NCBI GenBank assembly: GCA_039028975.1
Contig: JBCCHB010000104.1
Location: 1 to 60,392 of the forward strand
DNA length: 60,392 nucleotides
Direction of reading: 5' to 3'
Source: Chloroflexota bacterium
Lineage (GTDB): Bacteria; Chloroflexota; Anaerolineae; Caldilineales; Caldilineaceae
Shown one piece after another: positions 1 to 54,781 of the stretch; the stretch's first letter is position 1; each line of letters opens with the position of its first letter. The notes beneath the pieces were generated by a model. The model was not told the DNA's origin and ran no database searches. It saw nothing but the letters and a program-made list of their open reading frames with translations. Position numbers and translations under genes: made by a program.

Positions 1-2
1 GA

Positions 3-3688: not shown

Positions 3689-4570
3689 TCACATTGGCCT
3701 GCTAACCACACCTATTGTGCTGAACACTTCTCTGAACCTTTCACTCTCTGTTCCAAGGTAAAAGAATACATTGCCATGCGTGGGGCTACGCTGCTGCTGG
3801 CCATTTTTATCGATGAAACGAATGCGATGGTGAGTAGTGCAGGAGATATAGGTACTTGCCAGCTTCATATACCATGTGGCTGCAACGGCAGGCCGGACCA
3901 GAATGACTGCCTGGGTGATGTTGCCTGCCTCATATTCCTGGATGGCCTTGCCTGTGAAAGCTGCGGCTAATCCTGCCCCGAAAGGCGGGTTGAGCCAAAG
4001 ATTTCCTTGCCAGGGTTGCTCCAACCCATTATCCTTGATGCCATACCACTGTTTGGCCCGTATCCATTGCTGGGCTACTTCATTAGAGGCAGGGTCAAGG
4101 GAGATACGCCCCATGACTTGTCTGGCCATCTCGATATATTCGGATGGTGTATACCATTCATCACTTACCGAGCTACATTTGGCCTCATGGGGTTTACGTT
4201 TTCTGGTTTCCAGCCATGCTATCTCCCGCTTGATTTTCTTCAGCTCCCGTCCATTGTCAATTAACCGTTGGAACAGTTCGATTTCAGCATCTTTCAGATA
4301 GCGGCTCTTACAGCCATTTGCAAAGGGTGTACGGCTCCGGAGTTTGCCATAACGTCCTTTTCCTTTGGCGGTCCCTCCTGGTTTTGAATATTCGATCCAA
4401 CAATCCTGTAATATGCCCTCTTGCTGGAGCTGTTCCTGTTTGCGTTTGAGTGAAGCAAGACTACGCTGAGGCATAACAACTTTCGGTGGGCAGGATTCGG
4501 GGGCAAAACAGCAATGAGGCTCTTTTCTACTCTCCTTTGTGTCACATGGCAAGCCGTCACCCGAATGCAA
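3689..4570 (-). CDS. Phage-type DNA N6-adenine methyltransferase (Dam_phage-like). Probable true start is Met at ~4474.
   Basis: 'DEWYTPSEYIEMARQVMGRISLDPASNE' then 'NLWLNPPFG', i.e. the W.TP ... LDPA ... NPPF arrangement of phage Dam methylases. Confidence 0.7.
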   Translation of the reverse strand: MHSGDGLPCDTKESRKEPHCCFAPESCPPKVVMPQRSLASLKRKQEQLQQEGILQDCWIEYSKPGGTAKGKGRYGKLRSRTPFANGCKSRYLKDAEIELFQRLIDNGRELKKIKREIAWLETRKRKPHEAKCSSVSDEWYTPSEYIEMARQVMGRISLDPASNEVAQQWIRAKQWYGIKDNGLEQPWQGNLWLNPPFGAGLAAAFTGKAIQEYEAGNITQAVILVRPAVAATWYMKLASTYISCTTHHRIRFIDKNGQQQRSPTHGNVFFYLGTESERFREVFSTIGVVSRPM

Positions 4571-5011
4571 TGGGTGATTTTCTTTGCCTTGCCATCTGAT
4601 TTGTGATTGAACGATGCTGTTGCTATTCCAGTACCCAATTGTTTGCTATGCCCCAATCTGAGCCAGACATCCCCGCATTATCATCAACGGAGCAGCCTAT
4701 ACCACAGGAAGATGATATCACTTCGCCTACAGCTCCCCTTTTGCCCCTTAGCCCTACCCGTTATGTGGAACTACAAATGAACGGACTATATGGTATTTCC
4801 CCGGAGCGGCGATATATCCGTCCTGACCTGCCCTATGACCTTTACGATGGCTTGGCGGCAGTCACGGACGACCTCATGGAAGTGGAGGAACCGGAACGAT
4901 AGCAGCGCCCTTCTAGCGCAGTTTTCACCTTTTCTGCTTGCTCTCATCGGCACGTCCCGATAGAAGGGAAAATCTTAAAGATGTTTACCCTAAACCCAGT
5001 GCGCTACCCCG

Positions 5012-5890
5012 ATGCCTTCTTCCCCTTCATGGAATCAATATAGCAAGGACTTCATCAACATCCTTGAAGGATTCCGGTATCAGCACGGTATCCGAGAAGT
5101 GTTTTCCGACTGGGTTGAGGTTGCAGCCTGTGCCATCCACCAGGAACCGTATCATTTGGGGCTGGTGATACGGGATGAAACCTTTGATATCGTTGAAGCG
5201 CAATATATGGAGGCAGTGAAGAAGTATAACAAGGAGGAATTGAATGCTTTCGCCAATCTACTTGCGATCACGAAAATGGCGCTTGGTGAGGGCTATGGTG
5301 ATTTTCTTGGGAGAACGTATATGCAGCTTGAAATCAGTAACGACCGCAGCGGTGAATTCTTTACACCTTATCCAGTGTCCCTGATGATGGCCAGAATGAC
5401 CCTGGCGGATGTAGCTGAACAACTTCAGAAGAAGTCTTTTATCACTGTATCCGAACCAGCTTCTGGTGCAGGTGGGATGCTGATCGCACTGGCAGAGGTA
5501 CTTCAGGAGAAGGGATACCAACCAAGTGAAGCCATGTTCTTTGAGGCAGTTGATGTAAGCAAACTCTGCGCCGATATGACCTACCTACAGACAGGAATTC
5601 TTGGACTGTCCGGCATGGTGAGGCATGGCAATACGCTGACGATGGAGTCATGGAGCCACCGCTTTACACCGATATGTCGTATTTTCCCATACCGTACCAA
5701 CAGATTCCTGGACAGCCTTTATACTGATCCGGCGGAAATACCCGAACCAGAACAACCACCTGTTGCCGCCAACGACAATGAATTAGAGCAAGAAACCAGC
5801 ACACCCACACCAGAGGCTACTGCTGAAGCCGAGGTACTTGATCGCCTCTCTGACCTCGATCAATCTTACGTCCAGGGAAGATTGTTCTAG
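5012..5890 (+). CDS. N6-DNA-methylase-like protein (HsdM/gamma-class AdoMet-binding core) lacking a recognisable NPPY/F/W catalytic loop. Degenerate or non-catalytic.
   Basis: 'GEFFTPYPVSLMMARM' then 'VSEPASGAGGMLIALAE' (FxTP ... EPAxGxGG). No NPP[YFW] follows, and there are no adjacent hsdS/hsdR. Confidence 0.5.
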   Translation: MPSSPSWNQYSKDFINILEGFRYQHGIREVFSDWVEVAACAIHQEPYHLGLVIRDETFDIVEAQYMEAVKKYNKEELNAFANLLAITKMALGEGYGDFLGRTYMQLEISNDRSGEFFTPYPVSLMMARMTLADVAEQLQKKSFITVSEPASGAGGMLIALAEVLQEKGYQPSEAMFFEAVDVSKLCADMTYLQTGILGLSGMVRHGNTLTMESWSHRFTPICRIFPYRTNRFLDSLYTDPAEIPEPEQPPVAANDNELEQETSTPTPEATAEAEVLDRLSDLDQSYVQGRLF

Positions 5891-6302
5891 GCTGCTTCTT
5901 CTCTTACAGCCAAGCTATCCGGGCCTGCTCAGGCTATGCTGAAGGCCCTTTGCCCCTCGTTACTTGCCAAGGTGTCAGCCTCACATTGCCATCTCTCAAA
6001 GAGCGGATGCTACATGTTGCTTAACCCCTTTTCCCTCTTGACTGCACTCGCTATTTCCCGCTCATTTTTTCTTTTATCCGTCCTTATTTGATGCTCTGGG
6101 CAGGGTATCACGTCTCATGTGATGGGTTATAAGGCAGGTATCGGTACAGATTTCTCCACGTGGTGTCCGTTGGTTCCGGCTTGTGTAGCAAACCACAGCA
6201 GACAGGCAATGCCGCGGTCCGCGCAAACGTGTTGGACATGCCTGTCTGCTGCGGCCTGCTTCTCTTCTCCTCACATACGAACCACAACATAGGAGAAAGA
6301 TC

Positions 6303-6542
6303 ATGACTGAATCAACCACCAACAAACCCGTATTCACTTTCCGACTTGGTACCCTTTCCGCCACCATCTGGCAGAACCGGACGAAGAAAGGAAGCTATTA
6401 CCGTACAGAAATGGTTCGGAATTACAGAGATACGGAAGGTGTCTGGCAAACAAGTAGCAGCTTCGGCCATGAGGAGTTGCTGAATGTGGCCAAACTAGCC
6501 GAACGTGCTGAAGACTATATCGCCCGTCTTACGCAATCCTAA
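6303..6542 (+). CDS. Hypothetical 79-aa protein.
   Basis: ORF only. Sits directly upstream of the methyltransferase gene. Confidence 0.3.
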   Translation: MTESTTNKPVFTFRLGTLSATIWQNRTKKGSYYRTEMVRNYRDTEGVWQTSSSFGHEELLNVAKLAERAEDYIARLTQS

Positions 6543-6612
6543 CAAGGCACATTTTCACAGGGCTGCACCAAAACGCAGCCCTTACTATTACACTTACTTC
6601 ACGGAGTATCTC

Positions 6613-7269
6613 ATGTTTTCGATTCACAGCTTTCTGAACCAACTCATTCACGATAATTGCATCCAGGTGATGCAGACCATGCCAAGTCACAGCATCGACC
6701 TGATCGTCACCGATCCACCCTATCTGGTGAATTACCGCTCCCGCGATGGCCGCACCATTGCCGGGGACCAGGATGATGCATGGCTGCATCCAGCCTTTGC
6801 CGAGATGTATCGGGTACTTACTCCCAACAGCCTGTGTATTTCCTTCTATGGCTGGAACAAGGTAGACCGCTTCATGGATGCATGGCGCACTGCCGGATTC
6901 ATGCCCGTAGGTCACTTCACTTGGAGCAAGCCTTATGCCTCTAGTCAAGGCTTCACCCAGGCCAGACATGAAAATGCCTATCTACTCGCTAAGGGTAACC
7001 CCAGAAAACCTGCCCATCCACCCAGAGATGTTCTGCCCTGGCACTATACCGGAAACCGACTGCACCCGACGCAAAAGCCTGTCTCTGCACTCACACCGCT
7101 GATTGAGGCATACTCTACCGAGGGTGCCATCATTCTCGATCCCTTCGCTGGTTCCGGCACTACTGCCGTTGCTGCTAGACAGTTACACCGTGCCTTTATC
7201 GGTATAGAGATGGACCGCACCTATTTCGTTAAGGCCAAAGACAGGCTGGCAAAGCATTCCGCCTCGTAA
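6613..7269 (+). CDS. DNA methyltransferase (N4-cytosine/N6-adenine, PF01555-like). The ORF track begins at 6505; the first ATG is at 6613.
   Basis: 'IDLIVTDPPYLVNY' (DPPY motif IV) then 'ILDPFAGSGTTAVAA' (AdoMet motif I), the beta-class motif order. Confidence 0.85.
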   Translation: MFSIHSFLNQLIHDNCIQVMQTMPSHSIDLIVTDPPYLVNYRSRDGRTIAGDQDDAWLHPAFAEMYRVLTPNSLCISFYGWNKVDRFMDAWRTAGFMPVGHFTWSKPYASSQGFTQARHENAYLLAKGNPRKPAHPPRDVLPWHYTGNRLHPTQKPVSALTPLIEAYSTEGAIILDPFAGSGTTAVAARQLHRAFIGIEMDRTYFVKAKDRLAKHSAS

Positions 7270-13629: not shown

Positions 13630-13896
13630 TCACCGCTGCCGCAAGTTTTCAACGATGCTGTCTATTTTGATGGTGTTCCAGTAGAGTACGGCGTTGGAAA
13701 CAAGGCTGAGACAACTGGCCTTGTTCATGATTTCTTCGTAATTTCCGGTCGTGAACTCTACCTGGTCTGCAAAGAAAATCCGCTGTGGTAATTTATGACG
13801 ATACTCTCCTTTGTTGAGCTGTAGCTGGACGGTTCGACGTAAATCCGGATCGGTGAGATAGCGCAGAATATATTCTGTTTTGATGATACGCCCCAA
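13630..13896 (-). pseudogene. Tn3-family transposase (TnpA) C-terminal fragment. Remnant only.
   Basis: 'GEYRHKLPQRIFFADQVEFTTGNYEEIMNKASCLSLVSNAVLYWNTIKI' matches the conserved C-terminal region of Tn3 TnpA. No upstream continuation of the frame. Confidence 0.75.
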
Positions 13897-14003
13897 ATGA
13901 GTGAATGCTTTAGATAGACGGTCTGATGGGTAACTGCTGGTTAGGCGCTGTACGATAACATGAACAGGAGCAGTTCGTTGTTCCAGCGAGGTTATGGTTG
14001 ATA

Positions 14004-14478: not shown

Positions 14479-14730
14479 TTGTATTGTTTCACTATGCGGT
14501 ATGACACCGAAAAATGGCAGGCCAAACGGTGGGAAACGGAGCGCCGTTACTACGTGGCCGAACTGCGTCAGGATCTGTTTGGTGGCTGGTGTATTGAACG
14601 GCATTGGGGAGCACGTTACAGTCGGCAGGGAAATAGTCTGACCATCTCTGCAAACGACTACGTTCATGCGCTTGAGCTGCTTGAGGAGGTTGCCAAACGG
14701 AGACAGCTTCGGGGGTACGCCCATGCCTGA
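14479..14730 (+). CDS. WGR-domain protein.
   Basis: 'RRYYVAELRQDLFGGWCIERHWGARYSRQGNSL' matches the WGR-domain pattern (RyY.....DLFG.w.v...WGRiG..Gq). Confidence 0.6.
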   Translation: MYCFTMRYDTEKWQAKRWETERRYYVAELRQDLFGGWCIERHWGARYSRQGNSLTISANDYVHALELLEEVAKRRQLRGYAHA

Positions 14731-15301
14731 TGTCCTCCATGACCAGGAAGGCCACCGCAAATACCTCAATAAGGCCGAGCGGGAAGCTTTCTTAAAAGCA
14801 GCACTCGATGAAGAACGGGAACGGCGCACTTTCTGCGAGATGTTACATTACAGCGGTGCGCGGATTTCTGAAGTGCTGGCGATCACCGCAGGCCGCATCG
14901 ATCTCGACACGCATAGCGTCACGCTGGAAAGCCTCAAAAAGCGGCAGCGGGGTATTTTCCGCATTGTTCCCCTGCCTTCTTCTTTCGTCGAACGGCTCGA
15001 TTTGGTACATGGGATTAAACAGGCACAGAAAAAGGGTAAAGAGGAGGTGTGGCTTTGGACATGCAGCCGTACCACCGCATGGCGTATTGCCAAGGGTGTG
15101 ATGCAGCGGGCCGGAGTGATAAGCAGCGCCGCCACACCCAAAGGACTACGGCACGGTTTCGGTGTCGCAGGCGTTACCCATGAAGTGCCGCTCAATATGG
15201 TGCAGAAATGGCTCGGACATACCGACATCGCCACCACCGCCATCTACGCCAATGCCATTGGTGAAGAAGAACGGCAAATTGCACAGAGAATGTGGGAGTG
15301 A
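14666..15301 (+). CDS. Small tyrosine recombinase/integrase (catalytic domain only). Likely start is Met at ~14723.
   Basis: Catalytic-residue context 'ARISEVLAI' (Arg), 'HGLRHGFGV' (His-x-x-Arg), 'IATTAIYANA' (Tyr nucleophile). Confidence 0.75.
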   Translation: MRLSCLRRLPNGDSFGGTPMPDVLHDQEGHRKYLNKAEREAFLKAALDEERERRTFCEMLHYSGARISEVLAITAGRIDLDTHSVTLESLKKRQRGIFRIVPLPSSFVERLDLVHGIKQAQKKGKEEVWLWTCSRTTAWRIAKGVMQRAGVISSAATPKGLRHGFGVAGVTHEVPLNMVQKWLGHTDIATTAIYANAIGEEERQIAQRMWE

Positions 15302-21191: not shown

Positions 21192-22241
21192 TTACTGATG
21201 CCTTCTCTTTTCATGGACTTTACGACAGAAGCCGATAAATGCTGCATCAGGATTACGGGGCGGCTCCGTCATCCATTCCCGCCACTCCTCCTCCAAATTA
21301 TAAATATCGCGCCCTGGGGCGGCTAAACGGGCTTTGTGATATGTATCCGGCTTCAAAGGAGGGCAGAAGGGACCAGTTTGTTTATCCTCCTCTATGCACA
21401 ATGGCATTGTGTTTCTATTTCTAAACTCCACCTGATCCGCCTGCTCATAAAAGATGACTGTGTAATCTGGTAAATGATCGTGTGCGGCCAGATGCTTTAT
21501 AGATCGGCGAAATTCTTTCAAGGAAGCTTTAGAACCAGATTTTTTATGCATTACCTCCAAAGATACAGACCACCTCTCTTGTTGGCCGCAGTGTTTTCTG
21601 GCTAATTCATAGGTTCTTCGCTCGATGGGCTTCCGTAAGCGGAAATAGTCACGATGTAGAGTCAATACTTCGCGTTCGCGTATTGCATCAAAGACCCAAT
21701 CTGATAACACAACCTCACAGTAGAGTAAGCGCCCATCTAGGCCGAATTTTCGGGCTACCGTTGCTGCTTCAATCAGGCCAAATGCTTCCCATTTCTCCTC
21801 GTCACCTCGGTGTATATTGGTGCGGATACGTGTTCCATCCAAACGATCTAAAGCCTCGCATAGAGCCTGATAATCCTTGCCAGCCGTTCCCCGATTGGTA
21901 AATTTCAGTAACTCATGTGCATTGAGACGTACTCGCTTACCAACTGGTTTATCTTCCCTAAGTCTTGCGATAACCTGAGAAATCGCATATATCAAGATAT
22001 CTTTATCGTATATGGTCGCTAATCCCTTCACACTGGGAACAACCTCTAACCAATTGCCATTATGTTCGTATCGCCGGATATTAGTCTCTGGCTTTTTCGA
22101 CAAAGAATAAAATGGGTGCTCCATTTGCGGGATAATGTCTTTCAGTACCGCATCTGCAACATCGCAGATAAACAGATCGTGCTGCGGATGACGATCCGGT
22201 AATAGTTGGTCGTCGTTGTTGTTCGGGGTTTCACACACCAT
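21192..22241 (-). CDS. repA: Plasmid replication initiator protein RepA (RPA family, PF10134-like).
   Basis: 'MEHPFYSLSKKPETNIRRYEHNGNWLEV', 'GLATIYDKDILIYAISQV' and 'LLKFTNRGTAGKDYQALCEALDRLDGTRIRTNI' match conserved RPA-family blocks. Iterons lie immediately upstream and overlap the start codon. Confidence 0.8.
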   Translation of the reverse strand: MVCETPNNNDDQLLPDRHPQHDLFICDVADAVLKDIIPQMEHPFYSLSKKPETNIRRYEHNGNWLEVVPSVKGLATIYDKDILIYAISQVIARLREDKPVGKRVRLNAHELLKFTNRGTAGKDYQALCEALDRLDGTRIRTNIHRGDEEKWEAFGLIEAATVARKFGLDGRLLYCEVVLSDWVFDAIREREVLTLHRDYFRLRKPIERRTYELARKHCGQQERWSVSLEVMHKKSGSKASLKEFRRSIKHLAAHDHLPDYTVIFYEQADQVEFRNRNTMPLCIEEDKQTGPFCPPLKPDTYHKARLAAPGRDIYNLEEEWREWMTEPPRNPDAAFIGFCRKVHEKRRHQ

Positions 22242-22372
22242 AGAGTATGTTTCGGGGTTTTACACACCCTTGTCAAGAACTTTCGGGGTATTAAACACCG
22301 CCTGTAGATAAACCGGATTTTACCCACCAAGTTTCGGGGTTTTACACACCAAAATTCGGGGTTTCACACACC
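22222..22372. repeat. Iteron array: five copies of an 18-bp TTCGGGGTTT(T/C)ACACACC repeat with 22- to 31-bp spacing, plus a degenerate half copy.
   Basis: Copies at 22222-22239 (overlaps the repA ATG), 22251-22268, 22282-22299 (degenerate), 22333-22350 and 22355-22372. Half copy near 22311-22328. Confidence 0.75.
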
Positions 22373-22475
22373 GCCTAGTTCAAATAATAACCTAAAATCA
22401 AACCCCTATAAGCAAAAAATTTCCTTTAACACCTATTTAACACCTATCTAACACACTACGTGCGCGAGGAAGCCT

Positions 22476-22484
22476 GTGGATAAC
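22476..22484 (-). promoter_or_regulatory. Consensus DnaA box (TTATCCACA on the minus strand) next to the AT-rich stretch and TTAACACCTAT repeats.
   Basis: 'tgtggataa' at 22476-22484. 'ttaacacctat' x2 at ~22425-22447. An AT-rich run at 22380-22420. Confidence 0.4.
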
Positions 22485-22514
22485 ACCAAATTCTAATGCC
22501 AACATAAAAATTGC

Positions 22515-22632
22515 ATTCGCTCAAAGAGCGAATAGATTTTGATTAGTACCTACCCTTCGGTCGCCATGCTCCCTACGCCCCACACCTACGGTGTGGCCTA
22601 AAATGCATGAGCGATGCATTTGCATCGCTCAT
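22515..22632. other. Cluster of three perfect hairpins (8-bp, 7-bp and 12-bp stems) between oriV and the primase gene. Candidate oriT, single-strand initiation site, or primase loading site.
   Basis: attcgctc-aaa-gagcgaat (22515-22533); ccacacc-tac-ggtgtgg (22580-22596); atgagcgatgca-tt-tgcatcgctcat (22607-22632). Confidence 0.45.
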
Positions 22633-22776
22633 AACTCATCCTGATGACTAGGCAATGACAACAGAACGCAGCACTCCATGCAGATGTGGAAATGCAAAGA
22701 GAGTCAAAAAGAAGACTGATGAAAGAAAAAATAAAGGCTTTTTTGGGGTTGTTGGTTAACAAGAGGAAGGGAATAC

Positions 22777-23769
22777 TCAAGCGATGCAGGCGGCTAGTCT
22801 GTTTTGGATGAGGAAGGCATTGTAGTCATGGAAAGAGGCATAGAGGGGAGATTGATCGATGAGGGTAAGGTCTGGCAGCTTCTCTTGTAGGTAAGAGACT
22901 AACTCTTTGCCTGTATCATCATGATCTAGATAGAGATGAACCTCCCCTACTCCCATCTCCTGGATAGTTTCCACAGCACGTTTCCTTAGAGAGGCAGAAT
23001 TGAGAATGATCACGGGCATGGGCAGTGTCCTACTGCCTCTATGTTGCATCCAGGACAGAAAATCCATAAAGCCCTCAAACATGGCAACAGCATCCGGTAT
23101 GGATGCTGTTGCGTGTTGTGGAGACAGCAGGGTGAGATCTTTCTTGCCTTGGGCGCTCTTGAAGCCACGGGAGCGGAGTTCATACCCACCGCTCCTACTG
23201 GCAAAGGCAAGAGAATAGAAGCGTCTATCACCACGTTGATAGTGCATCTCCTGTAGCCAGGGCATTGCTATCGCTTTGTCGATACCACGTTCTTTCAGAT
23301 ACTGAATTAATCCTAAACTCTGCAAAGGAAGGATTCTAAGCACCGTGAGAGCATCATCCGCACCCTCCGGGTGGGATTCTCTATCCAAACCCTCTTTCGC
23401 TGCTCTACGGGCATCTATGGCCCTTTGGTGCGCGTCCTCCCACAAAGAAGGCTGCACAGGTGCAAGCGATGGATCACCCAGGCTCGTAGAGCGGGCAATC
23501 GGTAAGGCTTCCAGCTTGCGTAAGGCTCCCGCTACATCATCCACAGCCAAGCCGTAATACAGGCACACAAATTTCAGGATGTTGCCCCCTACCCCAGACC
23601 CGTGGTCGTACCAAGCTTTCCCGTCACGGCTTATCTTGAAAGACGCATCACTTTCTTGCCGCCAAGGACTACAATACCACCACTCCCCTCGGACCTGGCG
23701 GACCGCCTCACACCCCAAAGCCGAAAGCAAGTCTCGAATATGGATGGTCTTGGCCTCTTGGGTGCGCAT
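22777..23769 (-). CDS. Primase-like protein: degenerate CHC2-type Zn-finger-like N-terminus plus C-terminal Toprim domain (plasmid TraC/DUF3991-like).
   Basis: 'WYCSPWRQESDASFKISRDGKAWYDHGSGVGGNILKFV' (primase Zn-binding-like, with cysteines largely lost). C-terminal 'VHLYLDHDDTGKELV' is a Toprim acidic motif. Confidence 0.55.
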   Translation of the reverse strand: MRTQEAKTIHIRDLLSALGCEAVRQVRGEWWYCSPWRQESDASFKISRDGKAWYDHGSGVGGNILKFVCLYYGLAVDDVAGALRKLEALPIARSTSLGDPSLAPVQPSLWEDAHQRAIDARRAAKEGLDRESHPEGADDALTVLRILPLQSLGLIQYLKERGIDKAIAMPWLQEMHYQRGDRRFYSLAFASRSGGYELRSRGFKSAQGKKDLTLLSPQHATASIPDAVAMFEGFMDFLSWMQHRGSRTLPMPVIILNSASLRKRAVETIQEMGVGEVHLYLDHDDTGKELVSYLQEKLPDLTLIDQSPLYASFHDYNAFLIQNRLAACIA

Positions 23770-24138
23770 GGAAAACTTTCTTTTTTCATGAATAATATGT
23801 TTCTCGAAGGCGTATGAGTGTTCTAACTTAAAAAATCTTTATAAACTCATGAGCATCTCCAACTCAGAAAGTGCAATTGTGACGTAATGTCAATACAATT
23901 GAGCTATTGCACTTGTGAACAACTGCACAGCAGAGCTAACATACACGTGTATTATTGTAGGCTCATATTGGATTCCTGGGATCTAATGCAAAGGGTCCCC
24001 AAGCAGATCCTTGGAATCCATCATGAGCCTTATTGTATAGCCTTTCTGCTGTATGATTGTACTAAAAAACAGTTGTTTCTCTATATAATTGCGCTATTGT
24101 GCAGTTGTATAGCAATTAATCTAACGAAGTAGAGGGCC

Positions 24139-24888
24139 ATGATTACAGCATTCATCAATCAGAAGGGAGGGGTAGGAAAAACAGCTACGGTTCTTCAAGC
24201 AGGTGGCATTCTGGCTGCTTCGGGCAAAAGGGTTCTACTTGTGGACGCAGACCCACAAGCAAGCTTATCTATCGATTTTGGTATTGAATCCCCTGATCCA
24301 GGATTAGATGACGTCATACTAGATGGTCGTTCAGTGAATGATATTATTCATCAGGTAAGAGATAATCTCGACTTAGCACCGACATCAATTCATCTGGCGC
24401 GAGCCGAACTTGAATTACAGAGCGCCTTTAATCGCGAATACCGAATGAAGGATGCATTAACCCCACTCCGAGATAAGTATGATCATGTACTCATTGATTG
24501 CCCTCCTAGTCTTGGCTTAATGGCTGTCAATAGTTTGGCAGTTAGCGACGACATCGCAATTGTCATGTCGTGTGATTATCAAGCCTTGATGAGTGTCGGG
24601 CTTCTGTATGAATCTGTGGTGGCACTCAAGGCTCAGATAAATTCAGACCTCTCAATTCGAGGACTCATTCGCACACGCTATGACGGACGCACAAATCATT
24701 CTGAATCAGTAGCACAAAAGGTAGTCGAATTATACGCCGACTATTTCCATATCTTTGATACGATTATAGGTGAACGCACAGTTATAAAGGATGCGACTGC
24801 TGCACATCAATTGATAATCGAATACCAGCGAGGTAGCGATGCTGCAAAAGACTATATCAAGCTGACAAAGGAGGTCTTCGGTGAGTAA
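24139..24888 (+). CDS. parA: ParA/Soj-family partition ATPase.
   Basis: Deviant Walker A 'INQKGGVGKTAT'. ParA-typical 'LLVDADPQASLS' and 'VLIDCPPSLG'. Confidence 0.9.
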   Translation: MITAFINQKGGVGKTATVLQAGGILAASGKRVLLVDADPQASLSIDFGIESPDPGLDDVILDGRSVNDIIHQVRDNLDLAPTSIHLARAELELQSAFNREYRMKDALTPLRDKYDHVLIDCPPSLGLMAVNSLAVSDDIAIVMSCDYQALMSVGLLYESVVALKAQINSDLSIRGLIRTRYDGRTNHSESVAQKVVELYADYFHIFDTIIGERTVIKDATAAHQLIIEYQRGSDAAKDYIKLTKEVFGE

Positions 24889-25231
24889 GAAGCAAGGTAG
24901 CCCATTAGATTCTCTGCAACGTCGTGACCTTCCAAAACTGGATGATATTAAATCTGTGCGAGAAAACAATTGTACAGTAGAACAGTTAGACAGTAAGAAC
25001 GAAGTTGCAAAAGAACCGACGCGATCTTCCAATGTGACTTTACCTATTTCTATGTGGGATTGGATCGACGACCGACATCGTGAAATCCAGCGTAGCGGAT
25101 GGCATTCTATTCGTAAAGCTGCTGTGATTCGAGCTATTATCCAAACTGCTATATCGGTTGAGGTTGATCTGACAGGTGTGACAACAGAAGAAGAAATATC
25201 TCAACGGTATAGAAGTGCAATTCAACAATAG
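24881..25231 (+). CDS. Small partition/centromere-binding protein candidate (ParG/RHH-like). Overlaps parA by 8 nt.
   Basis: Genomic position and coupling to parA. 'NVTLPISMWDWIDDRHRE' is an RHH-like beta-strand/helix. Its stop lies inside a 36-bp palindrome. Confidence 0.45.
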   Translation: MSKKQGSPLDSLQRRDLPKLDDIKSVRENNCTVEQLDSKNEVAKEPTRSSNVTLPISMWDWIDDRHREIQRSGWHSIRKAAVIRAIIQTAISVEVDLTGVTTEEEISQRYRSAIQQ

Positions 25232-25258
25232 CACAGTTGATCAACTGTGCTATTGTTG
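25223..25258. promoter_or_regulatory. Perfect 36-bp palindrome CAACAATAGCACAGTTGA|TCAACTGTGCTATTGTTG. Candidate centromere (parS/parC) or operator site.
   Basis: 18+18 nt exact reverse complement. Related CTATTG...GCAGTTG/CACAGTTG motifs recur upstream of parA at ~23900-23930 and ~24090-24115. Confidence 0.6.
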
Positions 25259-25279
25259 AATTGGCGATGTTTCAAACAT

Positions 25280-26362
25280 CTAATCCCCTTCTCTTTCGAT
25301 GAACCCGCATGTTAGGTTTATAATAGTGTTTGTATTGATATCGTAAGTGATAGAATAGGGTATATTGGAAATGGTTTTGCCGATAAAGTCTCCGTGATCA
25401 GAGCAAAAGACGATTATAGTTTCTTCGCGTAGTGATAGGCGGATCAATGCATCCAGGATTTGACCAAGAGCATCGTCAATAAAGCGAACCATGCCATAGT
25501 AGACCGCCAACAGTCCATAGATATCTTCTATGTCATCATTGCGTACACCTAGCATCTCATATAGCATCCGATTGCGTTCGGGGGCAGTGCCGTCGTTAAA
25601 TTCATCATCTCGCCAGGGCGGCAGGTCAATCTTCTCTTTGGGGAAGATAGCGGCGTATTGCTCAGGACAGACCCAAGGCTCGTGGGGATCGGGGATGGAA
25701 ACCCATAGGGCAAAGGGTTGGATATCTGATTGAATCCCAGAAAGGTTGCCAGGGTTGTCATCCGGCTGGGTATTGGATAAAACTTCCCGCCTGCTGGCAT
25801 ACTCTTCCAGAAAGCGGATGGTCTGGCCAGCCACCAATCCAGTGGAATAATCTTCAAGCGGAAAGTCGTTGGTGGCGTAGGCAAAATGGGGATTTTGGGG
25901 CGTCATCGTGCGCCGCAACTCATGGGCTGCATGGATTCCCGAAAGTGGGCGGAACCACTCCATGCCCTTGGTCTCAACCTTCTCTGGTAGGCCACTATGA
26001 GAAATTTCGCAGTAGGTATCAAAGAGAGCTAAATCCTCAGCCTGAGAAAAACAGTGGTTTTTCCCAATCAATCCCACATGGTACCCCGCCTCTTTCCATA
26101 GACGGACGCCATGCTCAACCCCCGCTGGCATAGGTGTCTCATTTCGCCGGCTACCGTGAGAGTGAGGCCACTGGCCTGTCCAAAAAGAGACCCGGGCGGG
26201 CATACAGAGCGGATGAGGCGTAAAGGCATTTTCAAAGAGAACCCCCTCGTCCGCCAAACGAGCCATATTTGGTGTCTCGCAGAAGGAATTGCCATAGAGA
26301 TGGCTGGCTGTCGCCTTCTGCTGGTCAGTCATGATTATGAGAATATTAGGTTGATTAGGCAT
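25280..26362 (-). CDS. Cys-type sulfatase (arylsulfatase family).
   Basis: 'ILIIMTDQQ' and the 'PLCMPARVSFWTGQWPHSHG' sulfatase signature (C-x-P-x-R). Confidence 0.85.
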   Translation of the reverse strand: MPNQPNILIIMTDQQKATASHLYGNSFCETPNMARLADEGVLFENAFTPHPLCMPARVSFWTGQWPHSHGSRRNETPMPAGVEHGVRLWKEAGYHVGLIGKNHCFSQAEDLALFDTYCEISHSGLPEKVETKGMEWFRPLSGIHAAHELRRTMTPQNPHFAYATNDFPLEDYSTGLVAGQTIRFLEEYASRREVLSNTQPDDNPGNLSGIQSDIQPFALWVSIPDPHEPWVCPEQYAAIFPKEKIDLPPWRDDEFNDGTAPERNRMLYEMLGVRNDDIEDIYGLLAVYYGMVRFIDDALGQILDALIRLSLREETIIVFCSDHGDFIGKTISNIPYSITYDINTNTIINLTCGFIEREGD

Positions 26363-26394
26363 ATTGTTGGGCGAATCTTAGAAAGTCGTAGACG

Positions 26395-28410
26395 CTAAAA
26401 GTCGAGCGCTTCATCAATAATCTCATTACTCTCCCGGACCGTATCATACTCACTACGAGCCTCTTCTAGAATGCGACCGATACCTTCGATGCGTTCGCTC
26501 AGCTCTTCGTCACTTTGGCTCGATTGCCAAGCCTGCCTTAGTAGATCTTCGAAGGATTTGGCCCCCTCGATATTTCCTAAGATCAGGTCGAGTTCCCCAA
26601 TCACCAGCTCGAACATACGGATCTTGCGGGCCAAAAGCTCAATGACGTGAGACTCAATGGTCTCATTGCAGGATAGGTTAAATATGGTCACATCATGAAT
26701 TTGGCCGAGGCGGTGGAGACGTCCAATGCGCTGCTCGACCCGCATAGGATTCCACGGCAGGTCATAGTTGATGAGCTGATGGCAGAATTGGAGATTGCGC
26801 CCTTCTGCACCGCTCTCGGTAGAGACCATCACGCGCATCCCTTCTTCACCTTCATCTCGAAATGCTGCGACCGCGGCCTCTTTCTGCTGAATGCTCATAC
26901 CGCCATGGAACCCGGTTGTAGGGATGTTCAGTTCGTTGAGCCGATTGACGATGGTCTCCTGAGTTTGCCGGTACTCAGTAAAGATGAGGAATTTGCCCGG
27001 AAACTGTTCCAGTAGTTCTTCTACAGCAACCAACTTCCGCCCGATAGGAATAGAACGGGCTAGATCTAAAAATTCCTGTAACTCAACCCGAGCATCATCG
27101 CTGTAGGCCCGATCATTGACCATCTTCTGGAGCGTGGAAGCGACGGCTTGAGGGCTACTGCTTAACTCGCGTTGTAGGATCGTCAGCGTTAGGCGCAGAA
27201 ACTTGCTATTTTCTGTGTTGCGGAAGCGTTTGCGGATATAGTCCGTAACGTCTTGGTAGAGCTTAAATTCGGCTTCACTAAGCGTTAAATGGTAGATGGC
27301 TGCTTGTCGCTTGGGGAATTGAACGTCCACTTTGCTGCGACGGTTGCGAATCATTACATCATTAAGCAAATGACGCAGGGATTGGGCATTTCTGGGTTGT
27401 CGTTTATCAGCTTGATCCAAAAAGTGGCGGCGGAAGGCTCGAGCCGTACCTAATTGTCCAGGTGAAAGAATGGTAATGAGGCTGTACAGCTCCAGGAGAT
27501 CATTCTGAACCGGCGTGGCCGTCAACATAAGAATGTAGCGCTTACGGATTTTGTTGACGAATTGCCAGGCTTGGGTACTACGATTTTTTAACTTATGAGC
27601 TTCATCGATGATGAGCAGGTCGTAATCCCGTGCCAGAATAACGTCACTATGGTCTCGACGTTTGGCCCGATCGATGGACGTAATCCAGCGACCGCTCTCT
27701 TCTTGGGCCAGAGCACGCCATTCAGCTGGCTTGTTGATGACGGTAAAGCGTTCGTTGAACTTGCCTTCCAACTCTTCGCGCCACTGTTCAGTTAAAGATG
27801 CAGGCGTCAACACCAGCACTGTACGCACGAGGCCACGCTGAATCAACTCCTTCATAATGATGCCGGCTTCAATGGTTTTACCTAATCCGACCTCATCCGC
27901 CAGAAGCGCACGGCCTCGCATATCGTTAAGCGCCTGGTGAACTGCTTGGATCTGGTGTTCATAATGCTCTACATTAATAGAGTCGAGGCAAATCAACTGG
28001 TCAAAGCCGGTGCTAAGGCTCAGCTCTTCTGCCTCTAATCGAAGCTGGTAGAGAGGTAGTGGCTCAGGCATCCGGATACGACCATGAGTACGAAAGAAGT
28101 TGGTCAGATTTTGAGGTGTCTCAATGACCCTTGGTGGCAACGTAACGCCAAAACGAGCGATCTTCTCTGCCATTTCGTGATCAATGTTGTACCGATACCC
28201 ACAGCGGAAACAAGCTGTTGCCTCTTCTTCATCAAGCCAGTTGCATTGAGGACAGCGCTTACCCATGACCGTCGGGGTCACCTTCTCTGTCTTATTCAGC
28301 TCTTTCTCAGCTTCGTCTGGTATTTCAAGCCATTCAAACCGCTCTTGCATTGGGATAGATAGGTCCTTACGATGCCCGCCGATCTGCGGGGATCTTGGTT
28401 TTGGCAGCAA
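26395..28410 (-). CDS. SNF2-family helicase with N-terminal zinc ribbon. Alternative start is Met at ~28350.
   Basis: 'CPQCNWLDEEEATACFRCGY' (Zn ribbon); 'LADEVGLGKTIEAG' (motif I); 'LLIIDEAHKLKN' (DExH); 'NYDLPWNPMRVEQRIGRLHRLGQ' (motif VI). Confidence 0.85.
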   Translation of the reverse strand: MLPKPRSPQIGGHRKDLSIPMQERFEWLEIPDEAEKELNKTEKVTPTVMGKRCPQCNWLDEEEATACFRCGYRYNIDHEMAEKIARFGVTLPPRVIETPQNLTNFFRTHGRIRMPEPLPLYQLRLEAEELSLSTGFDQLICLDSINVEHYEHQIQAVHQALNDMRGRALLADEVGLGKTIEAGIIMKELIQRGLVRTVLVLTPASLTEQWREELEGKFNERFTVINKPAEWRALAQEESGRWITSIDRAKRRDHSDVILARDYDLLIIDEAHKLKNRSTQAWQFVNKIRKRYILMLTATPVQNDLLELYSLITILSPGQLGTARAFRRHFLDQADKRQPRNAQSLRHLLNDVMIRNRRSKVDVQFPKRQAAIYHLTLSEAEFKLYQDVTDYIRKRFRNTENSKFLRLTLTILQRELSSSPQAVASTLQKMVNDRAYSDDARVELQEFLDLARSIPIGRKLVAVEELLEQFPGKFLIFTEYRQTQETIVNRLNELNIPTTGFHGGMSIQQKEAAVAAFRDEGEEGMRVMVSTESGAEGRNLQFCHQLINYDLPWNPMRVEQRIGRLHRLGQIHDVTIFNLSCNETIESHVIELLARKIRMFELVIGELDLILGNIEGAKSFEDLLRQAWQSSQSDEELSERIEGIGRILEEARSEYDTVRESNEIIDEALDF

Positions 28411-29314
28411 TAAATTGACGATGGGTTAAGTTTAACTTGTAGGAAATGTTGTAGATCTCCTCAGCCTCCTGAGCCGTGACATATCCATCCGCATCAGCGA
28501 TGGTGAAAAGGAGGTCAAGCAACTCTTCTCCTTCATCAGACGTAATGGTGGTTGCCAATTCTCGTGTCAAACGCAGAAAATCCATCTCTGCGCTGACTTC
28601 GCTAATGGCCACTTGGGCAATAAAGAGCGCCTCATCGCTGCTAACAGAAAGATCCTGCTCTAGATGAGTCGTCATGGCATTGAATTCACTGTCGGTGACT
28701 TGCTGGTCGATGTGGGCTATCCGGGCCATAAGCCCGCCAATTGCCGCTAGACGACGCAATTGTTCATCAGGCAGATTGAGGCTGAATGCCTCGCCCTCCA
28801 GCCGCCGTTGAATGCCGTAGTAGACCTTATTGCGGATAAATTCATCAAAGTATCGTTCCCGATTAGGGGCCTGGCTGATAGCTTGCTGGCGTCGCTGGAA
28901 GGGACCTTGCAACAGGCGAGAAAACTGACCAAAGATGTTGAGGTTGACCTGATCCATCGCCTGCTGAATCTCGGTCACAACAGCTTTCTCTTCAGAGGTA
29001 ATTACGCCATCGGCATGGACCAAGTTATCCAGATACTCTAAGGCCAACTTTTTATCGTCATCCGTACGCAGCTGGGTCTGTAATTCTTCGATCAGGTGAT
29101 GACGCTCGTCGGCAGATATAGGCGATTCGATGAACATTTCCAGGCGCGCCCATTCGATGGAATTTAAACGACGGTTGCCGCTTTTATGGGTTTCGGGTAG
29201 CTTATAGAGCAGATCTTTAAGTAGATTTTGCTCCTCATCAGTCAGTTCATTGTCTGCCCAAGCTGCTGCAATGATCACTTTCGCCAGGGCAAGGATTAAG
29301 TTTCGTTCGGACAT
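28367..29314 (-). CDS. Tandem TerB-domain protein.
   Basis: 'LALAKVIIAAAWADNELTDEEQNLLKDLL', 'LVHADGVITSEEKAVVTEI' and 'LLFTIADADGYVTAQEAEEIYNI' give the TerB (xADGxhxxxE) signature at least twice. Confidence 0.65.
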   Translation of the reverse strand: MSERNLILALAKVIIAAAWADNELTDEEQNLLKDLLYKLPETHKSGNRRLNSIEWARLEMFIESPISADERHHLIEELQTQLRTDDDKKLALEYLDNLVHADGVITSEEKAVVTEIQQAMDQVNLNIFGQFSRLLQGPFQRRQQAISQAPNRERYFDEFIRNKVYYGIQRRLEGEAFSLNLPDEQLRRLAAIGGLMARIAHIDQQVTDSEFNAMTTHLEQDLSVSSDEALFIAQVAISEVSAEMDFLRLTRELATTITSDEGEELLDLLFTIADADGYVTAQEAEEIYNISYKLNLTHRQFIAAKTKIPADRRAS

Positions 29315-29322
29315 ATTTCCCT

Positions 29323-29691
29323 TTATTTTTCTTCAAGTCGTACCAGATTCCGCACAGAAATCCAGCCCCACTCATTCTCCTCTGTCTTGGCCCAAGCCCA
29401 TCCGTTGAGAACGTGCGAGACCGTTACAAACGCGCCTATAGTGAGCGTCAACTCGTGGGCTGTATACGTGCCCTGTGCCGTTGCCCATTCACCATCTACA
29501 TGTAGAAGTTGTAGCGGAACCCAGCCTTGTTTGCCGTCGGCATTTTCGCACTTAACCCAATTTGCCCATTCCGGATCATCTGTAAACTTCTGGATTACTT
29601 GCACCAACTCTCCAGCAACAAAAGTAATAGGGTCTGGGTTGGTGGATTCGTGGGCGCGATGGACCATGTGGGTTGGTTGATATGAAGTCAT
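29323..29691 (-). CDS. Small protein with two SH3-like repeats.
   Basis: 'FVAGELVQVIQKFTDDPEWANWVKCENADGKQGWVPLQLL' and 'ELTLTIGAFVTVSHVLNGWAWAKTEENEWGWISVRNLV' follow the ELxhxxGxxVxV...W..a....G.xGWhP pattern. Confidence 0.5.
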   Translation of the reverse strand: MTSYQPTHMVHRAHESTNPDPITFVAGELVQVIQKFTDDPEWANWVKCENADGKQGWVPLQLLHVDGEWATAQGTYTAHELTLTIGAFVTVSHVLNGWAWAKTEENEWGWISVRNLVRLEEK

Positions 29692-29697
29692 TATTTA

Positions 29698-31089
29698 TCA
29701 CCCAGACCGTATGGTCAAATCTACATCAGCAGGGGTGAAATAAAGTTGGGCGTTGCCCTCACTTAGTCGTTCTAGCGCCTCTTGTTTACGCAGGGTGTTG
29801 AAGATAGCTACCTTCTCAGCTATAGGCAGATCCTCGCCAAGACCGTTGAGGAATGCTTGTACCCGCTGGGCCTCGGTTTCACCTGCTATAGCTCCCTCGA
29901 TTTGGGCATGTTGCCGACGGAGGTCAAGTAGTTGGCCGCGCTGTTGCTCCTTCTCAATTTCGCCTTGAAGCCCCTTTAAGCTGACTTCGTTTTCGCTCTC
30001 CTGCTTCTGCAGCCGGTTGATGCGATTGGTGGTTTCGTTGATGATCTCTTGGAGCACTTTTTGGGTGCTTGGATCCTTGCTGCTTACAGAACGAACTTCG
30101 ACCGCGTGTAGCGCAACGCCTCTTGCCAGATAGAAGGTCAGATCCCCTTCGATAATCACGCTGCGGATAATTTCGTTGAACGAGGCCAGGAATTGCTCCA
30201 GCGTAACCCGAGAGACGGCCTGAATGATCGCGCTTCGAGCATGGGAACAGATATCCCCTGGCGTGTCATCGGTGGTGCCAATCATCTTCTCTAAATCGGA
30301 GATCTCCCAAAAGAAGGTGACGCCGATAACCAACTCAACATTGTCTTGAGTGCGCGCCTCGAATTCATACCACATAAATTTGGGGCGTAGATCAAAGTGG
30401 GTGATCATCAGATTCCGCTGGTCTTTATAAATGCCACTTGACCAACGTAACGCCACCAGCTCTTGATGTGGCTCCAGGAAAAAGGCTCGTTTCGTTTCGT
30501 CACTGCCTCTGTGAAAGAGATAACGCCCGTTTTCGTCTTTAATAATGACTGCTTCGTTATCCTCTAACCGGATGCGCTTGCGTACTTCTGCCACCTCCTG
30601 GTGGGGCTCTGGCACAAAGACCTGCTTGTTTGTGATAAGAGATAGCTGCCCCGTGCGGTTGTCTCGCACCAACACGGCCGTCTCTTCATCAATATTCACG
30701 CCGACTTGTACAGCGTTGATCACATCTTCGGTAGGAGATAAATAAATGGTCTGCTCACCCCGTTCAACCCGAACGGTGCCAGTAAGATTGTCGATCAAGC
30801 AGACATATTCGTTTTGCCGGAGGGTAATGCTCTGCCGTTCTTCTACGACCTCGTCTTCTGCCTCCCGGAAAAAGAGCGTAGGACCGATGACATTACGCAA
30901 TTCACCAGTCAATGTGTTGCGGATAAGTAAATAATCGATAGGGCCGAGCGTTGTGGCCTTGAGTCGTGTAACTTTCCAAAGGGGTGGAATAAAGGCCATC
31001 TTGGGGCCATTTATCATGAATCGTCGAGTAAATGCCTGAACAAGCAGTTGCTCATCATCTTTCAGAAAGTAGTATCGGGGGAAGAACAT
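29698..31089 (-). CDS. Major-vault-protein-like protein: four ~45-aa MVP-type repeats, an SPFH/band-7 (vault shoulder-like) domain, and a C-terminal coiled coil.
   Basis: Repeats 'YLLIRNTLTGELRNVIGPTLFFREAEDEVV', 'YVCLIDNLTGTVRVERGEQTIYLSPTEDVI', 'VLVRDNRTGQLSLITNKQVFVPEPHQEVA', 'VIIKDENGRYLFHRGSDETKRAFFLEPHQELV'. Compare the vault repeat '[29 protein letters not shown]'. Then 'DNVELVIGVTFFWEI' (SPFH-like) and a heptad-rich tail. Confidence 0.55.
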   Translation of the reverse strand: MFFPRYYFLKDDEQLLVQAFTRRFMINGPKMAFIPPLWKVTRLKATTLGPIDYLLIRNTLTGELRNVIGPTLFFREAEDEVVEERQSITLRQNEYVCLIDNLTGTVRVERGEQTIYLSPTEDVINAVQVGVNIDEETAVLVRDNRTGQLSLITNKQVFVPEPHQEVAEVRKRIRLEDNEAVIIKDENGRYLFHRGSDETKRAFFLEPHQELVALRWSSGIYKDQRNLMITHFDLRPKFMWYEFEARTQDNVELVIGVTFFWEISDLEKMIGTTDDTPGDICSHARSAIIQAVSRVTLEQFLASFNEIIRSVIIEGDLTFYLARGVALHAVEVRSVSSKDPSTQKVLQEIINETTNRINRLQKQESENEVSLKGLQGEIEKEQQRGQLLDLRRQHAQIEGAIAGETEAQRVQAFLNGLGEDLPIAEKVAIFNTLRKQEALERLSEGNAQLYFTPADVDLTIRSG

Positions 31090-53938: not shown

Positions 53939-54781
53939 ATGAGCCAAAATACTGCCTTTATTGGGTTTCCCGATAAAAAAATGAATCCAATTGTTGTACC
54001 GGATTACTTTTTTAGTGATCTGCTTCCCTTAATTGATAATTTGGCCGAGCTAAAGTTGACCATGCACTGCTTTTGGTTGCTAAACGAGCAGAGTGGCGAT
54101 TTGCGCTATTTGCGGGGTGACGATTTGCGTAGCGATACCCAACTTCTCTCTAGCTTGAGCGCAGATGATCTTCGCCCTCCGCTGACTATTCTAGACGATG
54201 CCTTGGAACGGACCGTCGCTCGCAATACGTTGCTGCGCCTGGAGATTACTGCGCCGGGCGAGCCAGATGAATTGGGTTTAGGACTGGGCAACGAGCCAAA
54301 GAGTGGAGAAGAGGAGTTACTTGAAGATTGGTACTTTATGAATACGGTCAAGGGACGGCAGACGCTGGCTTTGATTCGTCAGGGGCAACTGACGGAACTT
54401 CTGCCTGTTCTGCCCGAAGAGGCAAAGCTCAAAGTGGACCGACCGATTATCTTTATTCTCTATGAGCAAAATGTGGGAATGTTGTCACCCATGATCGCCG
54501 ACCAACTGCGGGATCTTGAAAAGACCTATCCACCCTCTTGGATCGAGGAGGCATTTGAGATTGCCGTAAGCCGCAATGCCCGCAACCTGAAATATATTCT
54601 CGCCATTCTCAAACGTTGGGAAACAGACGGACGAGATACTGCCAAGCACAAGAGTGCTGGAACAGATACTCTAGGAAAGAGCAATCAATATGAAAGGAAT
54701 GGACGACCTGCTGGGGAACGACGAGTCCCAGAGAGCGGATATGATATCCCAGATGATCTCAAGGACATCATCATCGGGTAG
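53939..54781 (+). CDS. DnaD-domain replication initiation/primosome protein.
   Basis: C-terminal '[32 protein letters not shown]' matches the DnaD/DnaB_2 YxxxIxxxW motif. Positioned between dnaB and the helicase loader. Confidence 0.55.

Follow-up and report, generated by a model that had tools for sequence, protein, structure and literature searches.

The window analysed here is the entire 60392-bp contig of an NCBI metagenome-assembled genome (MAG) of the Chloroflexota, and it carries a plasmid-type replicon whose positions 21192-22483 are supported, on sequence comparison, as an intact iteron-controlled theta-type origin of replication (oriV) together with its initiator gene, repA, of the RPA (PF10134) family. 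The replicon has a complete and apparently functional RPA-type origin of an ordinary kind, unusual mainly by its Chloroflexota host and by a junction with chromosomal DNA. Judged from its gene content and composition, the maintenance backbone (primase, oriV, repA, a parA/parB-like pair and a palindrome) lies within a mobile segment of lower G+C content, at least 25 kb long, that is joined to Caldilineaceae-type DNA. The whole is probably a plasmid-like element that has become integrated or co-integrated in the genome of a Chloroflexota bacterium.

The RepA/iteron origin

The repA gene occupies positions 21192-22241 on the minus strand, so that upstream of it means higher window coordinates, and encodes a full-length protein of 349 aa. 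An earlier annotation made from the letters alone, hereafter the sequence-only reading, had assigned this protein to the RPA family, and the profile search agrees, with a full-length PF10134 domain (E 3.5e-82, 275.8 bits against a cut-off of 27, profile positions 4-228 of 228), while Rep3_N, the Pfam model for the WH1 domain of Rep_3 initiators, gave a sub-threshold match only (E 0.0056). RepA aligns at 99% coverage with relatives of 343-359 aa. A tblastn search of PLSDB returned 1222 matches, the top ones 63-66% identical over the full length and located on small to mid-size plasmids of Rhodobacterales and Acetobacteraceae, and relatives at 57-73% identity were found on 80 genome contigs; a PLSDB megablast with window positions 19-26 kb found no relatives at the DNA level. 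The closest relative is a 9.6-kb Logan contig (L083), whose RepA is 90% identical. Between these two genes pN is 0.068 and pS 0.80, with synonymous sites saturated, and by this comparison repA is under strong purifying selection. The sequence-only reading had named an inactivating lesion in RepA as a possible objection; the open reading frame (ORF) is full-length.

An AlphaFold2 model of RepA, of moderate confidence overall (mean pLDDT 72.9) and of low confidence in the N-terminal 50 residues, matches the tandem winged-helix (WH1-WH2) fold typical of iteron initiators. In a Foldseek search of the PDB the predicted fold was closest to domains 2-3 of RctB, the initiator of Vibrio cholerae chromosome 2 (E 2e-10, probability 1.0; PDB 5tbf, 5ubf), followed by the Rep WH1 domain 6h24 (E 2e-4). 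The similarity to RctB extends over ~260 residues and two winged-helix-like domains (TM 0.44/0.53) at a sequence identity of 11-14%, and a phmmer-level search of RepA against PDB sequences detected no relation to any solved Rep structure. RctB also contains further domains, and its origin logic is different, being based on 12-mers, 39-mers and crtS.

Upstream of and overlapping repA, the 18-bp repeat TTCGGGGTTTYACACACC, which reads GGTGTGTRAAACCCCGAA in the repA direction, was matched with at most 2 mismatches at 22222, 22251, 22282 (2 mismatches), 22333 and 22355 and nowhere else in the 60 kb; dinucleotide-preserving shuffles gave a mean of 0.04 matches, and 0/100 reached five. The five iterons of the sequence-only reading are therefore real and lie where it had placed them, and the count rises to six with a degenerate copy in phase with its neighbours. 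All six are on the minus strand and stand at +2, -27, -58, -87, -109 and -131 relative to repA. Iteron 1 (GGTGTGTGAAACCCCGAA, 22222-22239) does overlap the repA start codon, as had been proposed: it spans ORF nucleotides +2 to +19 (ATG-GTGTGTGAAACCCCGAA-C) and covers codons 1-7 (ATGGTGTGTGAAACCCCGAAC, translated MVCETPN), and most relatives likewise have an iteron at +2. Iteron 2 (22251-22268) fills the spacer between the -35 hexamer and the start codon, and iteron 3 (22282-22299) carries 2 mismatches and keeps 17/18 bases in L083. The degenerate iteron 4 (GGTGGGTAAAATCCGGTT, 22311-22328) has 5 mismatches, sits in 22-bp phase with iterons 5 and 6 and shares 14/18 bases with L083, including the first 13. 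Iteron 5 (22333-22350) and the distal iteron 6 (22355-22372) were identified as pattern matches. Since L083 has the same six iterons at identical spacing, and identity falls from 94% within the iterons to 56% in the spacers between them and 33% for the A+T-rich stretch, the iterons form a phylogenetic footprint in this pairwise comparison with a relative whose RepA is 90% identical.

The putative -35 element of the repA promoter is a TTGACA hexamer at 22271-22276 on the minus strand, 35 nt before the ATG. Nearly all family members have TTGAC(A) at exactly this distance, and the alignment contains no Shine-Dalgarno sequence. The hexamer at -35, an iteron within the promoter spacer and the missing Shine-Dalgarno sequence together imply a leaderless repA mRNA, whose promoter and start codon would both be covered by iterons and whose first codons (MVCETPN) would themselves be iteron sequence.

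Beyond the distal iteron lies the A+T-rich run noted earlier, a 52-bp stretch of 69% A+T (22373-22424) that forms part of a candidate DNA unwinding element (DUE). Its 40-bp maximum reaches 77.5% A+T against 52% for the whole window, and its divergence from L083 is to be expected of an element defined by composition only. It is followed by direct repeats (TTAACACCTAT in the sequence-only reading) that can now be described more precisely as three GTGTTA(A/G) units ~11 bp apart (22425-22458, minus strand), with perfect copies of TTTAACACCTA at 22425 and 22436 and a third, degenerate copy; these candidate DUE repeats bring the A+T-rich segment to 86 bp at 70% A+T. A GC-rich spacer of 16 bp separates them from the DnaA box TTATCCACA (22475-22483, minus strand), which is perfect, as claimed earlier, and the sole perfect copy in the 60 kb. 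A second, DnaA-box-like sequence with 1 mismatch (TTATCTACA, 22303-22311, minus strand) lies inside the iteron array, and a box at this position (-70) with 0-1 mismatch is also found in L083, L004, L005, L084, L008 and L031, the box being perfect in several relatives.

These observations were further strengthened by a comparison of the regions upstream of repA in all extracted loci, 53 of which had at least 3 recognisable iterons; the relatives that share the design are for the most part plasmids of Alphaproteobacteria. The family iteron consensus is GGTnnnTRAAACCCCGAA, of which the AAACCCCGAA half is nearly invariant, and most of the 53 loci place iterons at +2, ~-27 and ~-57, followed by a distal group of iterons spaced at 22 bp. 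A perfect DnaA box was present inside the array or within 200 bp upstream of the distal iteron in 41/53 loci, mostly 110-125 bp upstream, and GTGTTA/GGTGTT repeats 11 bp apart stood between box and iterons in 34/53. The window origin has every one of these family elements at the expected place. In three more distant loci (L090, L091 and L092), whose RepA is ~51% identical to that of the window, the iterons differ, ending in TAAAGTACCAA in L090 and TAAAGTGTCGAA in L091, and retaining the AAACCCCGAA half with a different 5' half in L092, while the DnaA box and the GTGTTA triplet are retained in all three. The iterons thus change with RepA and track the initiator, as expected of its binding sites, and the GTGTTA repeats and DnaA box behave in this comparison as initiator-independent parts of the origin. 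The sequence-only reading had called the region a textbook theta-type oriV, a description supported by the family-wide iterons and their spacing, the GTGTTA repeats, the DnaA box, the footprint and the predicted RepA fold.

From this anatomy and the established knowledge of pSC101, P1, RK2 and pPS10, a working scheme for the origin can be proposed. RepA monomers would bind the six iterons and host DnaA the perfect box at 22475-22483, possibly also the weaker box at 22303-22311, and together they would melt the 86-bp A+T-rich segment, in which the GTGTTA repeats lie one helical turn apart. The host DnaB helicase would then be loaded, and primers would be made by either the host primase or the co-transcribed Toprim/zinc-finger primase described below. 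RepA bound to the three proximal iterons, from the -35 element to the start codon, would repress its own synthesis from the leaderless mRNA, and copy number would be kept in check by handcuffing, in which iteron arrays pair with each other. A divergent parA, its small overlapping partner ORF and a palindromic site would ensure stable inheritance.

Primase, partition genes and the G-rich module beside the origin

Upstream of the origin and co-oriented with repA is a gene for a Toprim/CHC2 zinc-finger primase-like protein of 330 aa (22777-23769, minus strand; PF13155 at E 1.6e-8, and PF01807). No close relatives of it were found on sequenced plasmids, the best being at most 32% identical and mostly from Bacteroidota, and all relatives with a name belong to MAGs of Chloroflexota, Caldilineaceae or Anaerolineae. 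Beyond the primase gene, parA (24139-24888, plus strand) encodes a Walker-type partition ATPase in a single intact ORF with a full AAA_31 domain (PF13614, E 2.4e-45), although its matches to the NCBIfam ParA and partition models fall below the curated cut-offs. The following ORF of 116 aa (24881-25231, plus strand) has no Pfam or NCBIfam match and is considered parB-like by its position and its 8-nt overlap with parA. Overlapping its stop codon is a 46-bp perfect palindrome (CAATTCAACAATAGCACAGTTGA/TCAACTGTGCTATTGTTGAATTG, 25218-25263), a candidate centromere or terminator, whose half-motifs GCTATTG and CAGTTG recur upstream of parA within 23860-24110, including 24091-24105; a role as centromere is possible.

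The order Toprim-oriV-repA recurs in four uncultured contigs (L083, L090, L091 and L092; metagenome or Logan contigs of 9.6-57 kb). With the window they share the arrangement Toprim, hairpins, G-rich module, DnaA box, three GTGTTA repeats, A+T-rich stretch, iterons and repA, with the exceptions that the G-rich module is diverged in L091, where an IS110 transposase gene also stands between Toprim and the origin, and that the DnaA box is absent in L083. In L083, L091 and L092, parA and Toprim are divergently oriented, whereas L090, a 57-kb contig that also carries a MobA/MobL relaxase gene and a TraG-like gene, has parA downstream of repA. The RepA and iterons of the window are closest to L083 (90%), whereas its primase is closer to L090-L092 (52-70% identity in tblastx segments, against 38-58% to L083). 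The replication module is therefore mosaic, and the pattern suggests that an iteron-repA cassette was exchanged on a conserved backbone of primase and origin flank.

The origin flank contains three hairpins between the primase stop codon and the DnaA box, and this block, folded as DNA, has a z-score of -5.0 against shuffles. Hairpin C with its T-run (22508-22540, minus strand) is terminator-like on both strands and shows compensatory changes in L083 and L092; hairpin A with its T-run (22600-22632, minus strand) is, by its fold, the probable terminator of the primase gene. Between them, the comparison of copies delimits a conserved G-rich module (AGGCC-hairpin B-GGGGCGTAGGGAGCATGGCGACCGAAGGGTAGG, 22549-22599, minus strand) of the general form AGGCC-[stem-loop]-GGGGCG-N-AGGGAGC-N3-GCGACCG-N-AGGGTAGG, with an almost invariant G-rich tail. 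The stem of hairpin B varies in a compensatory manner (CCACACC/GGTGTGG, CCACGCC/GGCGTGG, CCGCCCC/GGGGCGG and CCGCGCC/GGTGCGG, the last with one G:T pair), a covariation read from individual folds, the MAFFT alignment being too poor for pair counting.

The module is present in at least 107 PLSDB plasmids, including the PromA plasmids pTer331 and Thiomonas pXI1 as well as pWES-1, pPALO552 and pHAL40, and in L083, L090, L092, L122, L158, L168 and L213-L219. In every case examined it lies within a few hundred bp of iterons or a rep gene, on the A+T-rich side wherever the sequence was read, and the adjoining initiators belong to the RPA, PromA RepA and RepB/Rep_3 families; it is absent from the alphaproteobacterial RPA relatives. 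Rfam gave no match over the whole window at gathering thresholds and no credible match at permissive E-values in 22200-22800 or at three plasmid loci. A full-text literature search with the module sequence and a pattern scan of IMG/VR each returned 0 matches, and a metagenome scan with a 15-base core pattern returned mostly chance matches, with the extended module in 3/120. The possibility that it is a recognition site specific to the Toprim primase was weakened by its occurrence beside origins without that primase or without an RPA RepA, and 1-nt indels between copies led us to reject a coding sequence. The module is a candidate single-strand initiation or primosome-assembly site, or a candidate insulator against read-through transcription.

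Junction with Caldilineaceae-type DNA and state of the element

The replicon ends ~3 kb from a junction near 25376, where the homology of a 3'-truncated sulfatase gene (25280-26362, minus strand) ends and the element gives way to host-type DNA. Caldilineaceae MAGs encode 490-aa proteins to which the sulfatase is 67-74% identical, with homology ending after residue 327 of ~490, and its homologues include ones on 0.5-Mb and 14-Mb Caldilineaceae contigs. The boundary thus has an interrupted target gene, of which an intact copy stands in a syntenic TerB-SNF2-sulfatase arrangement in L086. G+C content is 0.41-0.46 over 7.3-25.4 kb and 0.49 to the right of the junction, which is crossed by an independent k=31 Logan assembly of SRR22824298 (L085, equal to window 28826-25234); no 18-mer is repeated near it apart from the palindrome, which lies 112 bp away and breaks k=31 assembly.

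The two sides also differ in gene content. To the left are three DNA methyltransferase genes, a Tn3-transposase fragment, a short tyrosine recombinase, a CHAT/EAD1 protein, a PIN/MazE pair and an excisionase-type HTH protein, followed by the repA/primase/parAB backbone. To the right of ~25.4 kb are genes for the sulfatase, an SNF2 helicase, a TerB protein and a peptide ABC transporter, then selA (42300-43757), isopentenyl-phosphate kinase, rseP and dnaB (52399-53805), and finally a DnaD-domain gene (53939-54781) and a DnaI/DnaC/IstB-like gene (54690-56195), all in host-type DNA; selA, isopentenyl-phosphate kinase and rseP score above the NCBIfam equivalog cut-offs, and dnaB is also at equivalog level. 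The sequence-only reading had pointed out that dnaB, the dnaD-like and dnaI-like genes and selA share the window with the origin. All are indeed present, but they are not parts of the replicon, lying 20-33 kb from the origin and beyond the junction, with nothing to link them to it.

Integration of such a replicon is not exotic. RPA replicons with complete iteron arrays were found inside a closed 6.7-Mb acidobacterial chromosome (L058, OY969908.1) and on 1.2-1.5-Mb contigs of other phyla (L015, L071), from which integration of RPA replicons appears to be recurrent across phyla.

Several observations weigh against reading the window as an intact origin in an integrated element. A tblastn search for the missing ~180-aa 3' part of the sulfatase finds none in the 60-kb window, and the left boundary of the foreign segment, which lies outside the window, can therefore not be placed. 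No integrase was found at the boundary, and a search of 1-30 kb for att-like direct repeats, tRNA genes and long direct repeats gave nothing convincing; the sole recombinase (14666-15301, 211 aa) is short, Xer/invertase-like and located mid-segment. The linkage between oriV and junction rests on the NCBI contig and on a tiling with 30-nt overlaps, given that the Logan assembly breaks at 24186-24215, a 30-mer coding for the parA Walker A motif, and again at the palindrome. At the origin itself, the perfect DnaA box is not conserved in L083, the closest relative, the putative repA promoter has a weak -10 region (GAAACA, against GAATAT in L083), and RepA binding, melting, autorepression and leaderless translation are inferred.

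Two further candidates were discarded. The recombinase gene as a frameshifted integrase pseudogene was rejected, the upstream ORF encoding a WGR-domain protein and not an integrase N-terminal domain, and the 24-kb Logan contig as a circle was rejected, window 1-400 sharing no k-mer of at least 16 nt with 23.8-24.7 kb. A closed circular molecule was not seen, the contig continuing into selA, rseP and dnaB, and the ORFs of 120 aa or more in 1-25 kb include no gene for a relaxase, a type IV coupling protein (T4CP) or a type IV secretion system (T4SS).

An integrated element need not be a working one, and it is an unlikely possibility that the plasmid is a silent fossil whose origin no longer works. 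Decay is visible in its surroundings, in the form of the Tn3 transposase fragment of 93 aa (13651-13929) and the ORF-poor stretch at 12.7-14.4 kb, and the weak -10 region and the lack of evidence for an excised form point in the same direction. All family-conserved origin elements are nevertheless intact, and repA, the primase gene and parA are full-length ORFs. Moreover, the iterons have been kept at 94% against the 90% relative while synonymous sites became saturated, and any inactivation must therefore have been very recent. The opposite proposal, that the RepA/iteron origin is active in a Chloroflexota host, either in a secondary replicon with dnaB, selA and rseP or in an element alternating between integrated and free states, is rather improbable.

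A related explanation takes the whole contig as a megaplasmid or chromid of a Caldilineaceae-like bacterium, in other words a secondary replicon, which uses the RepA/iteron origin and has captured dnaB, selA and rseP, in which case the truncated sulfatase gene would be an old recombination joint and not an insertion into the main chromosome. It would account for a complete replication and partition backbone under selection, for a plasmid-type replicon and core genes on one contig, for the lack of an integrase or att boundary, and for the closeness of the predicted RepA fold to the initiator of a Vibrio chromid. This explanation is quite improbable, however, since integrated mobile elements are far commoner than chromids with a replicative helicase gene, the G+C content shifts at the junction (0.41-0.46 against 0.49), the sulfatase homologues reside on multi-megabase Caldilineaceae contigs, and the same RepA family with its iterons is found inside complete chromosomes elsewhere.

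Highly improbable is an assembly chimera, in which a free plasmid (1 to ~24215) was mis-joined to chromosomal DNA through the parA Walker A 30-mer. The Logan assembly does fork exactly there, the single site at which a misjoin is conceivable, and leaves three separate pieces (112-24215, 24186-25247 and 25234-28826). These reproduce the NCBI contig by perfect tiling, however, parA is an uninterrupted ORF that has its full AAA_31 domain, and the palindrome half-motifs recur upstream of parA across the fork. Conserved Walker A 31-mers are expected to be common to unrelated parA genes of a metagenome and to cause a fork without a misjoin, as is likely here. Even in a chimera, the parA/parB-like/palindrome module would abut the truncated sulfatase at 25376, so that plasmid-type DNA is joined to the chromosome in both cases. 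Integration or co-integration of a plasmid-like element therefore remains the probable state of the replicon.

Other loci within the window deserve brief mention. In the left segment, three DNA methyltransferase genes stand in a row at 3689-7269 (Dam-like, N6_Mtase and N4/N6 MTase); none of the ORFs scanned is an obvious restriction partner, and an NB-ARC/TPR STAND NTPase gene adjoins them at the left end of the contig. The Tn3-family fragment, on the minus strand, matches DDE_Tnp_Tn3 at E 2.7e-30 over profile positions 267-356 of 389 and is what remains of a decayed transposon in the mobile segment. In the host-type DNA, a cluster at 28367-31089 codes for proteins with a TerB domain and an SH3 domain, respectively, and for one of 463 aa that weakly matches the shoulder and repeat domains of major vault protein; the best NCBIfam matches of the adjacent SNF2 helicase are DISARM DrmD and DpdE, below cut-off, and the cluster is possibly a locus of defence type. 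At 501 aa, the DnaI/DnaC/IstB-like ATPase encoded beside dnaB and the DnaD-domain gene is of unusual length, and its two matched stretches suggest that an AAA+ loader was duplicated or fused. The helicase-loading genes of Chloroflexota look DnaD/DnaI-like rather than DnaC-like.

Relation to known replicons and significance

The closest described counterparts of the window replicon are the RPA plasmids of the Alphaproteobacteria, found in Rhodobacterales (Paracoccus, Phaeobacter, Sulfitobacter, Pseudosulfitobacter) and Acetobacteraceae (Acetobacter, Komagataeibacter), with which it shares a RepA 63-66% identical over the full length, the iteron consensus, the layout, the three GTGTTA repeats, the DnaA box and TTGAC at -35. 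It differs from them in its Chloroflexota host contig, in the Toprim primase gene and G-rich module upstream of the origin, and in being joined to chromosome-type DNA, whereas the alphaproteobacterial relatives are carried on small circles. Initiators of the RPA family are also known from plasmids of Planctomycetes and from pBTK445 of Tetrathiobacter kashmirensis, where an iteron region adjoins the rep gene (bioRxiv 10.1101/2024.01.22.576637). Belonging to the same Pfam family as the window RepA, these offer a precedent for RPA replicons outside the Proteobacteria, although the planctomycetal proteins form a distant clade of their own (~37% mutual identity) and the window RepA falls in the proteobacterial-type clade.

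Classic iteron theta plasmids (pSC101, P1, F, R6K, RK2, pPS10) combine a tandem winged-helix initiator and direct-repeat iterons with an A+T-rich unwinding region that is bordered on its outer side by a DnaA box, and autorepression is served by those iterons that overlie the rep promoter. Set against this established knowledge, the window origin appears to share these features and departs from them in having one iteron inside the coding sequence and an apparently leaderless mRNA. The oriV of RK2 (IncP-1) has a GC-rich hairpin region beside its A+T-rich region, and RSF1010 has single-strand initiation (ssi) sites. The G-rich module has the same position as the RK2 hairpins, on the DUE side of the iterons, and the same character, with a weak sequence resemblance (CCGGGAGGGTTCG against CCGGAGGGTAGGCG; the RK2 segment was found in PLSDB plasmids at 100% identity), and any homology or common function with the RK2 hairpin region is conjectural.

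The window origin is a well-resolved addition to a very common but little-studied family, and its comparison with relatives yields a consensus architecture for RPA replicons, in which iterons of a common logo, one of them covering the start codon of a repA that appears to be leaderless, are combined with three GTGTTA repeats and a DnaA box. Noteworthy about the window origin are its setting in a Chloroflexota host, its physical joining to chromosomal DNA, the mosaic backbone, which documents a proteobacterial-type RepA/iteron cassette recombined onto a different backbone of primase and origin flank, and the undescribed origin-flanking module, which is apparently unannotated, widespread and a candidate general accessory site of origins. 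Few plasmids of Chloroflexota, and especially of Caldilineaceae, are known to have been characterised, and genetic tools for these bacteria are all but absent; the primase-oriV-repA module, with relatives in several Chloroflexota-type contigs, is a candidate replicon for shuttle vectors. Were the origin active in its present host, it would be the first described iteron replicon of the RPA type to work in Chloroflexota, and the leaderless repA, the replicon's own primase and the G-rich module would be the features that allow it to function across phyla.

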